IMG/VR virus record: IMGVR_UViG_2740892213_000005
DNA length: 10,053 nucleotides
Source of the DNA: a virus
Taxonomy: Duplodnaviria; Heunggongvirae; Uroviricota; Caudoviricetes
Direction: 5' to 3' (one strand)
In this document: piece after piece, positions 341-7,186 of the stretch
Layout of the letters: each line of letters begins with the position of its first letter
Numbering within the stretch: the first letter of the stretch is position 1
Notes under the pieces: generated by a model
Databases searched by the model: none
The model's input: only the letters and a program-made list of their open reading frames with translations
What the model was told of the DNA's origin: nothing
Made by a program: the position numbers and the translations under genes

Positions 341-1717
341 TCATACGTCAGCCCCTTGTGCATATCGTCTGCCACGCGCAGCAGGTGCATTTGATGCTGT
401 GCAAATCTGTCTGGCTTCATCCTGGTCACATGCAACAAAGTGTCCGTTACAGAACCGCTGGTAAACCGTACCAAGCGAGCCAAAACGGTTTTTCGTCACG
501 ATGATTTCAGCAAATGGCGCGGCGCTACTGTTCTCGTCATATACCGCTTCCCGATAGAGCATGATGATTGAGTCTGCGTCCTGCTCAATGCTTCCTGAAT
601 CACGCAAATCTGCGTTTGTCGGGCGTTTGTTTGGTCGCTTCTCAACATCGCGCGAAAGCTGACTCAGGGAGATAACCGGTGTTTTCAGGTCTTTCGCCAT
701 CGCCTTCAGGCTTCCGGAGATGTGAGCAATTGCGAGGTCGTTGCGGTCTGCTTTCGGCTTCTCAATCAGGCCAAGATAATCCGCCATGATGAGTGAGAGG
801 TTTGGATTTTCCTGTTTGTGCCGTTCTGCGATTGAGCGTATTTCTTCGACCGATAACCGCGAGGCATCGACTACCCATACATCCAAATCTGCAAGCTGAC
901 TCATGCCGTTAGCAACACGTGCCCATCCTTCGTCATCCATCGATGCAGGATTTCGCAGCACGCTAACCGACATCCTCCCGGCGTTGGCAATGCTTCGCTC
1001 TGCAATCTGCAATGCGCTCATTTCCATTGAGAAAATCAACACTCCGCGCCGGACGTCAGAACCAGGAATAACGCGGCTTGCAACGCCTTCGGCAATCTTC
1101 AGAGCCAGTTCGGTTTTCCCCATACCAGGACGAGCAGCGATTATCACCAGGTCTTCCGCGTTCATCCCTCCGGTGATGGCGTCAAGTTCTTCGATTCCGG
1201 TCTTCAGGGTATCTGACTCTTCTCCGTTCCTCAGACGCCTGTCAAGCGTGTCAGTGTAGTCAGTAATGATTTCCCCTAACCGTACCGGTTTAACCTCGTC
1301 ACGGGGCTTTCTGATGGCTGAAAGACGCTTTACAAGTTCATCCATCGCCTGACTCGATGCGTCGATAGTTCCGCTCTGAATTGGTTCACGCATTTCATCC
1401 ATGATTTCCAGCACCAGACGACGGTGATAGTTATCCGCGACCATTCCGGCATATCCCTTCAGGTTTGCGGCACTCGGGCAGTTCTTGCTGGTCATCAGGA
1501 TTGACGTGAAATGCTCCTCTCCGCACGCCTCGGCAACCATCAGCGCGTCGATTAGGTTTCTGTTTCTCGCCTGCTTGCGGATAACCTCGAAGGCTTTCCG
1601 GTAGAGCGGAATTGAAAACGCTTCCGGCTCCAGCGTTGCAAGAACGTCACTGGCGGTTGGAGTTAATCCACCAATCAGCAGGCCACCGATAACGCTCGCT
1701 TCGATATCCTGTTTCAT
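341..1717 (-). CDS. DnaB-family replicative DNA helicase (P22 gene 12-like)
   Basis: 458 aa; N-terminal [13 protein letters not shown] motif, Walker [20 protein letters not shown], and [11 protein letters not shown] identical to the E. coli DnaB motif; ATGA start/stop overlap with the upstream O-like gene. Confidence 0.9.
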
Positions 1718-2661
1718 GCAATCCCCCTGTCTGCAAACTTCCCTTCCCGAACTCCCGTTAACGAATCTTCCCTCAGCAGGTAATCAAAATCAGCCGTCCA
1801 GCCCGTGTCGTTGTCTCCGAAGTAAAACGGCTTGGCCTGATGCACAAACGCCCTGACATACGCTCTGAAACCGTCCACGTTTGGCGTTTTCAGTTGCGGG
1901 ATGATTTTCTTCAGGCGGCGTTTGCGTTTCTCGTTGACCGCAACAGCGTGTGGCAGTCTGTCACCGACTTCGGTGTTGTAGGCGTTCAGGAATGATTCGT
2001 AGTCGATTCGTTCTGCCTTGCGACGTTCAGGTTTAACCTGCCCATCGCCTCCCCCATTGGGGGGTAGGGGGGTATTATTTATATTCTTGTTAATACCTTC
2101 TTGTTCATGATGTGCGGTTGTTTGTGCGGCCTCATGTGCGCTTTCATGTGCGGCATGTGCGCTGAAAGCCGCGCCATTACTGTCTTCGTCATGTGCGGCA
2201 TCATGTGCGGTTGTTTGTGCGGCTTCATGTGCGGGTAAATTGTCCATTTTTTGAGCATATTCATGGTAATTTGTGATGGTGATCACACGACCTTTTTGCT
2301 TCTCTCCATCAATGGAGATCATCCCCTCTTTCACAAAAACCTGAAGCATCCGCTCAACCTGATCACGGCTTGCTGGCTTGCCATGCCTGTCGCATAACTG
2401 AAGACCTAAATCAGCTGCTGTCACAACCAGTTGACCGGGTTGCAGATGCCATTCATGACCTTTGAAATTCGCTTTGTATGGCTTTCTGGCGGCATTCAGG
2501 AGAAGGTTTTCCCACAGGGTGCGAAGATAAACATCTTTCGCCCATGACTGTTTCAGAATGCTCCGGTACAACGGAATGTAACCAGTTTTCTGGTTCTCCA
2601 TCCTGTTGCTCCTGCGCTCGTGTGCGGCGCTGAAATCGTAGATTTTTGCTGTATTGCTCAT
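1714..2661 (-). CDS. O: Replication initiator, lambda O-like (P22 gene 18-like)
   Basis: N-terminus [10 protein letters not shown] resembles lambda O MTNTAKILNF; gene contains the iteron/AT-rich origin; His/Ala-rich repetitive linker is encoded by the iterons. ORF track begins at a GTG at 2664; the ATG at 2661 is preferred by homology. Confidence 0.85.
2051..2100. other. Origin-associated G/C-rich near-palindrome (CCCCCATTGGGGGGTAGGGGGG) plus AT-rich unwinding element (about 2073-2100)
   Basis: AT-rich stretch TATTATTTATATTCTTGTTAATA immediately flanks the iterons, as in lambda ori. Confidence 0.6.
2107..2234. repeat. Origin iterons: about 9 copies of TGTGCG(G/C) at 10-12 bp spacing, including two copies of a roughly 32-bp unit (around 2107-2140 and 2202-2233)
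   Basis: Direct repeats read from the sequence inside the O-like gene; in lambda the O-binding iterons also lie within O. Confidence 0.7.
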
Positions 2662-2663
2662 CA

Positions 2664-2936
2664 CTACCTGCCTTGACGAAAGACCTTAAGAACATCGTTA
2701 AACTGACTTACGGATATGTCTTCTTTGATCAGCCTTTCCAGAAATGCGTTTGGAATGAACGTATATCCCTCCTCTTTTGGTAGAGACGGGAGCAACGCCC
2801 TCGCCTCAGCCTTCAGAAGCTCAGTTCTGGCAACTTTCACAAAAGAGATTTGAGTTCTTTCATCAATGGAACGAAGGAAGCGCAAACGCTTAGCTTCTTT
2901 GTGTGTATCAGGTGGATTAAAGCCTTTGTTTCGCAT
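2664..2936 (-). CDS. Hypothetical protein (90 aa) between cII and O
   Basis: ATG with GAGGTAA Shine-Dalgarno 4 nt upstream; stop overlaps the O start (translational coupling). The track ORF 2664-3104 is the same frame extended upstream. Confidence 0.55.
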   Translation of the reverse strand: MRNKGFNPPDTHKEAKRLRFLRSIDERTQISFVKVARTELLKAEARALLPSLPKEEGYTFIPNAFLERLIKEDISVSQFNDVLKVFRQGR

Positions 2937-2941
2937 ATAAT
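2913..2941 (+). promoter_or_regulatory. Candidate pO-like promoter for an oop-like antisense RNA
   Basis: Perfect TATAAT at 2936-2941; weak -35 (TGGATT) 17 bp upstream; a terminator follows about 75 nt downstream. Confidence 0.3.
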
Positions 2942-2947
2942 TACCTC

Positions 2948-3015
2948 GTTGGATGTTGTTAAAATTCCATTTGTATTTGATCAGAACGCTCGGTCTTGCA
3001 TACCGGGCGTTTTTT
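2948..3015 (+). ncRNA. oop: Candidate oop-like antisense RNA overlapping the 3' end of cII
   Basis: Plus-strand terminator at 2987-3015 inside the minus-strand cII gene, with a TATAAT about 50 nt upstream; mirrors lambda oop geometry. Start is approximate. Confidence 0.4.
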
Positions 3016-3258
3016 ATTGGTGAGTCCATCAAGCGCATACTTAAAAGCCCTGCTAATTGGACTGATGTCTGATGCCATTCCAAAAGCACACAAGACCGAA
3101 GCAATAAATCTCCAGTCCGTTCTGCTTATCTTCGATTCATGACAGCCAATCATCTTTGCCAGACCGCGCTGGGTAAGCGTTGACAGGTTGATGAGTAAAT
3201 CTGTTTCTGCGCGATCAACGTCGCTCTGTGATAGTTTGCTGTAACTTGTTTGTTCCAT
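2959..3258 (-). CDS. cII: CII-like transcriptional activator
   Basis: 99 aa; C-terminus ...TNKKRPVCKTERSDQIQMEF matches lambda CII ...TNKKRPAATERSEQIQMEF as I recall it. Confidence 0.85.
   Translation of the reverse strand: MEQTSYSKLSQSDVDRAETDLLINLSTLTQRGLAKMIGCHESKISRTDWRFIASVLCAFGMASDISPISRAFKYALDGLTNKKRPVCKTERSDQIQMEF
2987..3015 (+). terminator. Intrinsic terminator (8-bp stem CGCTCGGT/ACCGGGCG, 7-nt loop, TTTTTT)
   Basis: Read directly from the sequence; sits antisense within cII. Confidence 0.6.
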
Positions 3259-3322
3259 TTCTTACTATTTCCATAGGTAAATAATCACTAATACTCATCT
3301 TTCGATGAGTGATTAATTAGTT

Positions 3323-3367: not shown

Positions 3368-3583
3368 TTAAGCGGCTTTGTGTTCCGGTGGGAACACGTC
3401 ATCAAGACTGACTTTTGCGCCTAACTTGTTTAGGCACGCAACAAGAGCACGGCATGTTTTAAGGTCTGGGAAGCGACGACCAGATTCCCAATGTCCGATA
3501 GCTCCCTGTGTGCATCCAACCGCCTTAGCAAGTGTTGTTTGAGAGATATTCAGTGACTCTCGATATTTTCGTAGGTTGCTCAT
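3368..3583 (-). CDS. cro: Cro-like repressor (HTH, 71 aa)
   Basis: Position divergent from cI; HTH motif QTTLAKAVGCTQGAIGHWESG; GGAGGG Shine-Dalgarno upstream. The track ORF 3368-3754 is the same frame extended upstream. Confidence 0.8.
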   Translation of the reverse strand: MSNLRKYRESLNISQTTLAKAVGCTQGAIGHWESGRRFPDLKTCRALVACLNKLGAKVSLDDVFPPEHKAA

Positions 3584-3694: not shown

Positions 3695-4354
3695 ATGAAA
3701 ATGAAATGGTATGAACTGGCTAGATCCAGAATGAAAGAACTCGGCATAACTCAAGAGAAGTTAGCTGAAGAGCTTGGTATGACGCAGGGTGGAATTGGTC
3801 ACTGGTTGCGCGGATCTCGTCATCCATCTCTTGACGAGATTGGTGTGGTGTTTAAATACCTTGGTATTGATAACGTCTCATTCAACCACGACGGTACATT
3901 TTCACCTGTTGGCGAATACTCATCTGCCCCCGTTAAAAAACAATATGAGTACCCTGTTTTTTCTCATGTTCAGGCCGGGATGTTCTCGCCTGAGCTTAGA
4001 ACCTTTACCAAAGGCGATGCGGAGAGATGGGTCAGCACAACCAAAAAAGCCAGTGATTGTGCGTTTTGGCTTGAAGTTGAAGGTAATTCCATGACCGCAC
4101 CAACAGGATCCAAGCCAAGCTTTCCTGACGGGATGTTAATTCTCGTTGACCCTGAGCAGGCTGTTGAGCCAGGTGATTTCTGCATAGCCAGACTTGGTGG
4201 TGACGAGTTTACCTTCAAGAAACTGATCAGGGATAGCGGTCAGGTGTTCCTACAACCACTAAACCCGCAATATCCAATGATCCCATGCAATGATAGCTGT
4301 TCCGTAGTAGGGAAAGTTATCGCCAGCCAGTGGCCTGAAGAGACATTTAGTTAA
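3695..4354 (+). CDS. cI: CI-type prophage repressor (S24 peptidase family)
   Basis: C-terminal roughly 130 aa almost identical to the lambda cI C-terminal domain ([38 protein letters not shown]); N-terminal HTH domain differs. Start at 3695 or 3701; the track ORF begins at 3620. Confidence 0.85.
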
Positions 4355-4385
4355 CAGCCTCACCACTCTAAAACACACAACAATA

Positions 4386-4414
4386 ACCCGACCTTAGCGT
4401 CGGGTTTTCTTTTT
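4386..4414 (+). terminator. Intrinsic terminator after cI (CCCGAC-loop-GTCGGG, TTTTCTTTTT)
   Basis: Read from the sequence about 30 nt after the cI stop. Confidence 0.6.
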
Positions 4415-4479: not shown

Positions 4480-4508
4480 TTGACTCAATAAAGTACACAT
4501 CGTACTAT
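4480..4508 (+). promoter_or_regulatory. pL: -35 TTGACT, 17-bp spacer, -10 TACTAT, with OL dyad AGTACACATCGTACT (4492-4506)
   Basis: Near-consensus sigma70 promoter about 200 nt upstream of N; operator overlaps spacer and -10. Confidence 0.6.
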
Positions 4509-4588: not shown

Positions 4589-4707
4589 AAACAGATACCA
4601 AACGAGATGGGTTTGGCGGTGATGTGAATTGCAGCTGCAACGACAGCAACCAGAAGATCAGCACCTGGCGCATCACCACCAAAGCCATTTCACATGAGGA
4701 AAACATC

Positions 4708-5016
4708 ATGACGGTAATCGTGTACGGAAAATCAACATTTGCAGGAAATGCCAAAACTCGCCGTCATGAGCGGCGCAGAAAGCTGGCTATCGAGCGTGAT
4801 TCCATCTGCAACATCATCGATTCGATCTTCGGCACAGACAGTGAGGAAGCTGTTCAGGAAGAACCGAGAAAGCGTTTAAGTCTTTCTGAAAAAGCAATAT
4901 CACTCGGCATCATCAGTAAATCAAATACAGATGCGAATGGCGGAAGCGTTTGTTTGCCTGAAGTTGCACTGTATGCTGCTGGTTACAGGTCAATGAAATC
5001 AATTACGGCGAGATAG
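4708..5016 (+). CDS. N: N-type transcription antiterminator (P22 gene 24-like)
   Basis: Contains the arginine-rich motif GNAKTRRHERRRKLAIER, the P22 N boxB-binding peptide; GAGGA Shine-Dalgarno upstream. The track ORF starts at 4624; the homology start is MTVIVYG. Confidence 0.85.
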   Translation: MTVIVYGKSTFAGNAKTRRHERRRKLAIERDSICNIIDSIFGTDSEEAVQEEPRKRLSLSEKAISLGIISKSNTDANGGSVCLPEVALYAAGYRSMKSITAR

Positions 5017-6217: not shown

Positions 6218-7186
6218 ATGAGTGAAGTAACAGATTTAGTTGTTATTGAAAAAGCAAATGCAATGACTGTATTTCAGTCTGCCGACCAGATTGAAGAAAT
6301 CCTTCAAAAGGTTGAACGTGAAGTTATGTCCTTTGTGCCTGATATCACAACGGCAAAGGGCAGAAAGGAGATCGCTTCTCTGGCGTATAAAGTTGCGCAG
6401 ACGAAAACATATCTCGATGGTCTTGGCAAAGACCTTGTTGCTGAACTGAAGGAAATTCCAAAGCTAATTGATGCTAACCGCAAGACAGTGCGCGATCGCC
6501 TTGATGAACTGAAAACCAAGGCGCGCCAGCCTCTTACTGATTATGAGGAAGAACAGGCGCGGATTAAAGCCGAAGAAGAAGCTAAGGCAGCAGCTGAAGC
6601 TCTCGCAAAGCAAATTGAGTATGACCATGAAATAGCTATTTTGATGGATCGCGAATTTGACCGCCAAAGAGAAGAGGCAAGACTCAAAGCGGAGCAGGAA
6701 AAGCGAGAGCATGAAGAACGATTAAAAAGAGAAGCTAAAGAGAAAGCCAGAGCAGAAGCCGAAGCAAAGGCAAAAGCCGAAATTGAAGCAGCAGCAAGGC
6801 GAGAAGCAGAAGCTAAGGCCGCAGCGGAACGTGCAGAGCGTGAACGCATTGAAGCCGAGCAACGAGCACAGCGCGAAGCAAAAGAGGCAGCAGAACGAGC
6901 TGAAAGAGAAAAGCAGGCAGCAATTGAAGCAGAACGCAGAAAAGCACATGAGGAGGCTGAACGAATCCGTCGCGAGGCTGAAGCAAAAGAGCAAGCCAGA
7001 ATAGCAGAAGAAAAAAGAATCAAGGACGAAGAAGAGCGTAGAGCAAAGGATAAAGCTCACCGGAAAGAAGTAAATAACAAAATACTTGCTGACCTTATCA
7101 AGGTTGGCGCATCAGAAGATGTTGCTAAAAATATCATAACAGCCATCGTAAAAGGCGAAGTATTCGCAACAAAAATAACCTACTAA
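6218..7186 (+). CDS. Hypothetical protein (322 aa) with a long E/A/K/R-rich charged helical segment
   Basis: About 100-aa N-terminal region, then a roughly 170-aa highly charged low-complexity stretch (EAEAKAKAEIEAAARREAEAKAAAERAERER...), then a short C-terminal region. GGAGGA Shine-Dalgarno. Confidence 0.75.
   Translation: MSEVTDLVVIEKANAMTVFQSADQIEEILQKVEREVMSFVPDITTAKGRKEIASLAYKVAQTKTYLDGLGKDLVAELKEIPKLIDANRKTVRDRLDELKTKARQPLTDYEEEQARIKAEEEAKAAAEALAKQIEYDHEIAILMDREFDRQREEARLKAEQEKREHEERLKREAKEKARAEAEAKAKAEIEAAARREAEAKAAAERAERERIEAEQRAQREAKEAAERAEREKQAAIEAERRKAHEEAERIRREAEAKEQARIAEEKRIKDEEERRAKDKAHRKEVNNKILADLIKVGASEDVAKNIITAIVKGEVFATKITY

Follow-up and report, generated by a model that had tools for sequence, protein, structure and literature searches.

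In phage lambda, the lysis-lysogeny decision is influenced by OOP, a 77-nt RNA transcribed from the promoter pO that is antisense to cII and acts in an RNase III-dependent manner (PMC12197685, PMC2327240, PMC5869508). Pairing of OOP with the pR transcript leads to RNase III-dependent decay of the cII mRNA and thereby favours lysis (PMC12197685, PMC2327240, PMC5869508). Also, interference between pO and pR has been described (PMC3985674), and pO influences replication (PMC3985674, PMC3349717). OOP has become a textbook antisense regulator of this decision, which in Stx phages controls the release of Shiga toxin. Oop-like sequences are present in Stx phages (PMC5488031), and these already imply the element described here.

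In this study, we asked whether the strand opposite the 3′ end of cII in a lambdoid phage sequence of 10,053 nt, referred to in full length as the window, encodes such an RNA. A preliminary description of the window had proposed an oop-like antisense RNA at this position, and four lines of evidence agree with that proposal: homology to phage 21 and lambda, a match to a covariance model, a lambda-like architecture, and the predicted size. We conclude with a probability of roughly 0.85 that positions 2948-3016 of the plus strand encode a 69-nt homolog of lambda OOP, reaching from pO (2913-2941) to the terminator tO inside cII, which by analogy with lambda would down-regulate cII.

Sequences and analyses

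For the search of oop homologs, a covariance model (R1) was built from lambda, phage 21, Salmonella phage SPN9CC and six prophage homologs, while the window and its close relatives were left out. The oop RNA of P22 was compared by means of the 63-nt sequence printed in PMC13397905. For the comparison of oop 5′ ends, 80 IMG/VR loci with 95-100% identical CII were used. More distant relatives were obtained by a scan of one genome per species, which yielded 22 cII loci with 44-89% CII identity, and 21 sequences matched by the model were aligned under guidance of the covariance model (alignment A5). Promoters were scored with a rough sigma-70 matrix with base frequencies based on published compilations. 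For synonymous resampling, the last 25 cII codons of the window were used.

Genomic setting of the locus

The window covers the immunity and replication region of a lambdoid phage, for which the following genes were assigned:

341-1717, minus strand: DnaB-type helicase
1714-2664, minus strand: O-like initiator
2664-2936, minus strand: small ORF of 90 aa (phrog_2519); its start codon and 5′-UTR carry pO
2959-3258, minus strand: cII, 99 aa, the antisense target (Pfam Phage_CII, E 7e-34; phrog_191, CII-like activator)
3368-3583, minus strand: cro (HTH_3)
3695-4354, plus strand: cI-type repressor
4705-5016, plus strand: N antiterminator

The region 2850-3300 has 98.7% identity to many Stx2a-converting phages, and the C-terminus of CII (...TNKKRPVCKTERSDQIQMEF) is similar to that of lambda (...TNKKRPAATERSEQIQMEF). 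The small ORF between cII and the O-like gene is conserved; it matches phrog_2519 over positions 1-90 of 90 (E 6e-57) and is entered as a CDS in LC487996.1, while no Pfam hit was obtained. Its slot is that of the orf48-type genes in P22 and HK022.

Some further features of the window were recorded. Within the O-like gene, at 2104-2246, repeats with a period of 12 nt occur (core CATGTGCGG, at least four overlapping copies, about 700-830 nt from pO), which are probably the iterons of the origin. On the plus strand at 3236-3249, just within the 5′ end of cII and opposite to it, lies a TTGC-N6-TTGT sequence, which in position and form corresponds to the CII-binding box of a pRE-type promoter directed toward cI; by itself, this pattern is no more frequent in the window than expected by chance (2 vs 1.85 occurrences). 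Just past cI, a symmetric hairpin has a terminator score on both strands, and beside it is the best promoter-like site of the window (4385-4406 and 4480-4508 for the two features). This plus-strand site, TTGACT-17-TACTAT, is probably the promoter pL, from which N is transcribed. Finally, an ORF of 322 aa (6218-7186, plus strand) contains a long, highly charged repeat segment rich in Glu, Ala, Lys and Arg (AEAEAKAKAEIEAAARREAEAK...).

Identification of an oop homolog opposite the 3′ end of cII

The element opposite the 3′ end of cII consists of the following parts:

2913-2918, plus strand: candidate −35 region of pO, TGGATT, 17 bp from the −10 region, 3/6 consensus
2936-2941, plus strand: −10 region of pO, TATAAT, overlapping the ATG of the small ORF (2936-2934, minus strand)
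2948-3016, plus strand: predicted oop RNA of 69 nt, from G2948 into the T-run (covariance model R1, with ends from lambda)
2950-2969, plus strand: weak 5′ hairpin, about −3.8 kcal/mol, in place of lambda stem-loop I (folding, model alignment)
2959-3016, both strands: sense/antisense overlap of oop and cII, 58 nt including the stop codon (coordinates)
2983-3015, plus strand: intrinsic terminator tO, stem 2983-3013, T-run 3010-3015 (terminator scan, covariation, synonymous resampling)

When the 3′ 62-68 nt of the element were compared with phage 21 and lambda, the identity to phage 21 was 89.7% over 68 nt (window 2963-3030, the 3′ two-thirds of the element) and that to lambda 85.5%. The overlapping feature in the phage 21 record is labelled "oopRNA", and the record of HK633 has a feature "similar to lambda oop" at the equivalent place. 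Model R1 gave a single full-length match in the window, at 2948-3016 on the plus strand (55.2 bits, E 3.4e-10), with 9.6 bits for the next best score. A scan of the whole window with Rfam 15 (E <= 1) gave no family matches; since Rfam appears to be without any oop model, this says nothing against membership in the oop family. Judged from its sequence, the element is a short-form, unannotated member of this known family.

The end points 2948 and 3016 were transferred by analogy from the 77-nt OOP of lambda, and the resulting 69 nt fall into the range of 65-75 nt expected in the preliminary description. The RNA 2948-3019 folds with −20.2 kcal/mol (z = −3.15). The complementarity of the predicted RNA to cII is perfect over 58 nt, comprising the last 55 coding nucleotides and the stop codon, compared with an overlap of 55 nt in lambda, of which 52 nt are coding (PMC5869508). 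Toward the 5′ end, 11 nt of the predicted RNA lie in the spacer between cII and the small ORF, compared with 22 nt in lambda. An ORF of 39 aa on the plus strand (2953-3072) was rejected as a coding gene, as the terminator would truncate it and it is without supporting evidence.

Proposed mode of action

According to the reading as an antisense RNA, the predicted 69-nt transcript would start at pO and end at tO inside cII. By analogy with lambda, it may pair on the pR transcript with the last 55 coding nucleotides and the stop codon of cII and with the 11 nt of spacer between cII and the small ORF; RNase III would then cut the duplex, the cII mRNA and the CII protein would drop, and the lower CII level would shift the decision toward lytic growth. 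Convergent firing of pO may in addition damp transcription from pR toward the replication genes, again as in lambda. RNase III cleaves the lambda duplex within the portion formed by the cII-O spacer (PMC5869508). Since the spacer duplex comprises only 11 nt here, processing by RNase III may differ from that in lambda.

The damping of pR could also be the main function. The oop homolog would then be mainly a transcriptional element in which convergent interference between pO and pR tunes the module of O-like gene, helicase and origin, with the RNA being secondary. This account is compatible with the antisense reading, and there is precedent for it: in lambda, there is less transcription from pR when pO is active, and replication is impaired in a pO− mutant (PMC3985674), and a replication-silencing phenotype needs oop transcription together with iterons (PMC3349717). 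In the window, iteron-like repeats lie inside the O-like gene. Against it, the replication module of the window consists of an O-like protein and a DnaB-type helicase, unlike the O/P module of lambda, and the silencing phenotype is specific to the lambda module, whereas a P22-type module is unaffected (PMC3349717). Furthermore, the terminator hairpin is strongly conserved with compensatory changes (see below), which argues that a discrete RNA is selected, beyond the mere firing of a promoter. As the primary role of the element, we regard this account as improbable and keep the antisense RNA as the preferred reading.

The promoter pO and its junction with the downstream gene

The TATAAT sequence at 2936-2941 had been noted before as overlapping the start codon of the small ORF, and this holds: the CAT at 2934-2936 is the ATG of the minus strand, and the first T of TATAAT is the complement of the A in this ATG. 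Likewise, the −35 region is weak, as previously stated; the best candidate, TGGATT at a spacing of 17 bp, agrees with the consensus in three of six positions. For this reason, pO is absent from the list of a consensus scan requiring at least 4/6 matches per hexamer. In lambda, the −10 region is CATAAT and the −35 region TTGAGT; the latter is unrelated to TGGATT because the downstream gene here is the small ORF and not O. The total score of pO is nevertheless about equal to that of the functional lambda pO, because the perfect TATAAT is better than CATAAT (rough sigma-70 matrix: 11.18 for TGGATT-17-TATAAT vs 11.57 for TTGAGT-17-CATAAT). With the same rough matrix, pO ranks third among about 20,000 sites on both strands of the window.

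The 5′ ends of oop at the 80 IMG/VR loci were of two types, a lambda type (37 loci) and a window type (35 loci), the latter having TATAAT, a deletion of 11 nt and no GATCCAG motif. Of 73 assessable related loci, 72 have a [CT]ATAAT sequence located 73-74 or 86 nt upstream of the T-run, and the −10 region was also found in 17 of 20 diverse prophage sequences as well as in lambda, phage 21 and SPN9CC. Upstream of the −10 region, the sequence and with it the −35 region change according to the downstream gene, of which there are at least six different ones. In loci L005-L084 and L086-L106, at least six unrelated downstream genes are joined to one and the same oop 5′ end with its −10 region. A constant −10 region next to a switching upstream sequence indicates a mosaic joint located exactly at the start codon and the −10 region, with the −35 region supplied by the gene that follows. 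This fits a published hybrid pO with the −10 region of lambda and the −35 region of P22 (PMC3349717).

The joint gives some room to the assumption that oop is vestigial here, i.e. that the hairpin was inherited with the 3′ end of cII and that the promoter became too weak after joining a new gene with a poor −35 region. The 3/6 match of TGGATT is consistent with this, as is a −35 region that is different in every downstream context, and conservation of the −10 region may partly serve the ribosome-binding spacer and the ATG of the downstream gene. One related locus has lost the −10 region entirely: in L032 (IMGVR_UViG_2778261069_000005), a full lambda-type oop (85.7 bits) is present, while everything upstream of its 5′ end is replaced; this is possibly a rearranged or decayed prophage. 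Against decay in the window stand the perfect −10 region, the total score on a par with lambda pO and the described hybrid pO. In addition, the TATAAT-containing short form occurs without change in 35 loci, which represent two upstream contexts, and in 279 of 5,426 complete E. coli genomes, where the RefSeq annotation at this place comprises no more than the CII gene and a hypothetical protein. A vestigial oop is therefore very unlikely.

The terminator tO

A strong terminator of the plus strand at 2987-3015 inside the minus-strand cII gene had been noted in the preliminary description, and its hairpin core, T6 run and position were all recovered in the sequence. The G+C-rich core of the hairpin spans 2987-3009 (CGCTCGGT/ACCGGGCG, loop CTTGCAT), A/U and G/U pairs of the flanking A-rich and T-rich runs lengthen it to 2983-3013, and the six T residues follow at 3010-3015. 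With a stem of 12 pairs, 6 of them GC, and an energy of −16.1 kcal/mol, tO ranks first among 18 terminator-like sites detected in the window by the scan; such sites are common in this sequence, with 10.3 ± 3.5 expected from shuffles. Termination on the minus strand by the same hairpin was rejected: no T-run follows the hairpin on that strand, so it acts in one direction only.

As the hairpin lies within a coding region, its stability was compared with that of synonymous variants of the cII tail. Only 0.8% of the variants match the observed antisense terminator (−16.1 vs −6.0 ± 3.4 kcal/mol; p ~0.008), while 12% reach −10 kcal/mol or below.

Conservation of the hairpin in Enterobacterales

The 22 cII loci from the species scan stem from Escherichia, Shimwellia, Symbiopectobacterium, Atlantibacter, Tatumella, Yersinia, Pantoea, Mixta, Winslowiella, Izhakiella, Pectobacterium, Edwardsiella and others. 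An antisense hairpin with a directly adjoining T-run was found in all of them, within the last 30-58 nt of cII and with −10 to −22 kcal/mol; under the lax terminator criterion applied, about 0.29 hits per 71 nt also occur in the flanking sequence, and the count was not relied on alone. The stem sequences are diverse (GCTCGG/CCGGGC, TCCTCGG/CCGGGGA, GCGTCCAG/CTGGACG, GGCTACTG/CAGTGGCC, TCCGCG/CGCGGA and others), and the tail peptide of CII is widely variable among the 22 loci.

In alignment A5, which was fitted to the structure of the model and hence leans toward it, 98.7% of the stem cells are paired and 8 of 11 pairs have changes on both sides. None of 500 shuffles reached the observed value, and slid controls gave at most three such pairs. 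With a plain MAFFT alignment of the 22 terminator segments, RNAalifold gave no base pairs, since stems of unequal length are misaligned in it; the covariance-model alignment was therefore used in its place.

Across genera (L086-L106, lambda, P22), compensatory changes preserve the antisense hairpin, while the C-terminal tail of CII varies widely in its amino-acid sequence. The protein tail thus seems to be constrained by the RNA structure and not the reverse. Taken together, the z-score of the RNA fold, the synonymous resampling and the covariation in distant relatives show that the element is more than chance. The idea of a coincidence, with the hairpin and T-run arising from the CII peptide (Lys-Lys-Arg-Pro...Glu-Arg), TATAAT from an A+T-rich translation start and no RNA function at all, can draw on the many terminator-like matches in the window, the background of the lax criterion and the share of synonymous variants that the peptide predisposes to a hairpin, but it is almost certainly wrong, as the observed stability is rare among these variants, the covariation across variable CII tails largely refutes it, and oop RNAs have been detected at the equivalent place in lambda, P22 and BTP1 (PMC13397905, PMC7067206).

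Occurrence and significance of the short form

The short-form copy is widespread, being present in E. coli genomes, phi24B and many Stx2a phages, and it is unannotated in GenBank and RefSeq and has no Rfam model. For Stx, O157 or phi24B phages, literature searches for studies that themselves detected oop gave only reviews and work on lambda. The practical value of the present analysis lies in the annotation and in a ready covariance model and alignment, while the understanding of how such RNAs work is unchanged.

A further-reaching view would be that the short form (window, phi24B, about 5% of complete E. coli genomes) is a functionally distinct subclass, and that oop represents an uncatalogued family across Enterobacterales whose terminator constrains the CII tail; we consider this view doubtful as a whole. 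As the short form has neither the 5′ stem-loop nor the LexA box and its spacer duplex is only 11 nt long, it might be processed differently, for example by a cut inside cII or by faster decay. It might also be uncoupled from SOS control, and it might affect translation of the downstream small ORF.

Comparison with known oop RNAs

Lambda OOP (77 nt, pO to tO, 38675-38599) is likewise antisense to the 3′ end of cII and the spacer following it. In both lambda and the window, the −10 region lies over the start codon of the gene behind cII, the RNA starts just downstream of the complement of the Shine-Dalgarno sequence of that gene, and the terminator is located inside cII. The tO hairpin of the window is homologous to that of lambda (GAACGCTCGG...CCGGGCGTTTTTTATTGG), with a loop extended by 3 nt, which correspond to one additional cII codon. 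The difference in length of the RNAs (69 vs 77 nt) goes along with a deletion of 11 nt in the 5′ part. The strong stem-loop I of lambda is essentially missing from the window RNA, and the 5′ domains fold with −3.8 (window), −11.3 (lambda) and −2.3 kcal/mol (P22 oop). Stem-loop I is probably not a defining feature of OOP, as the P22 RNA is also without it. A LexA-binding site in lambda pO-oop is reported (cited in PMC5869508); a LexA-like box of this kind is missing in the window, where a search of 2843-3129 for CTGT-N8-ACAG with up to two mismatches found none.

A conserved motif, GATTGATCCAG, was observed in the oop 5′ domains of L086, L095, L100 and lambda. It provides two alternative 5′ arms, in which either ATTGAT is paired with ATCAAT or ATCCAG with CTGGAT, and the choice of the arm is set by the codons of the last CII residues (I-D-M-Q-F vs I-Q-M-E-F). 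The window-type oop has lost both 5′ arms.

The oopRNA of phage 21 (AJ237660.1, 644-724) is nearly identical to the window in the tO hairpin, whose 7-nt loop is of the same type, and in the adjoining cII sequence, but differs from it in a lambda-type 5′ half and a pO derived from lambda O. The Stx phage phi24B (HM208303.1) carries, in its cII-O spacer, a sequence that deviates from the window in a single loop base (C instead of T3004) between the −10 region and the end of the T-run; it differs upstream of the −10 region and hence in the −35 region (TTTATT context). The element is not annotated as an RNA in the phi24B record. About 160 bp between cII and O are unannotated there (L109, 1360-1500), and a start codon lies over TATAAT as in the window, so the annotation of phi24B probably misses both a small ORF and an oop RNA.

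For two phages with oop RNAs of similar build, transcripts have been detected, namely the 63-nt oop of P22 (PMC13397905) and OOP of BTP1 (PMC7067206), both found by RNA-seq. Both are positioned as in the window and are antisense to c1, the equivalent of cII. The P22 terminator stem (GGCCTCAA.../...TTGAGGC) is unrelated to that of the window and belongs to a group with longer stems, so that the architecture is shared and not the primary sequence. Like the predicted RNA of the window, the RNAs of P22 and BTP1 are short, have little structure in their 5′ part and end in a strong terminator within the coding 3′ end (PMC13397905, PMC7067206).
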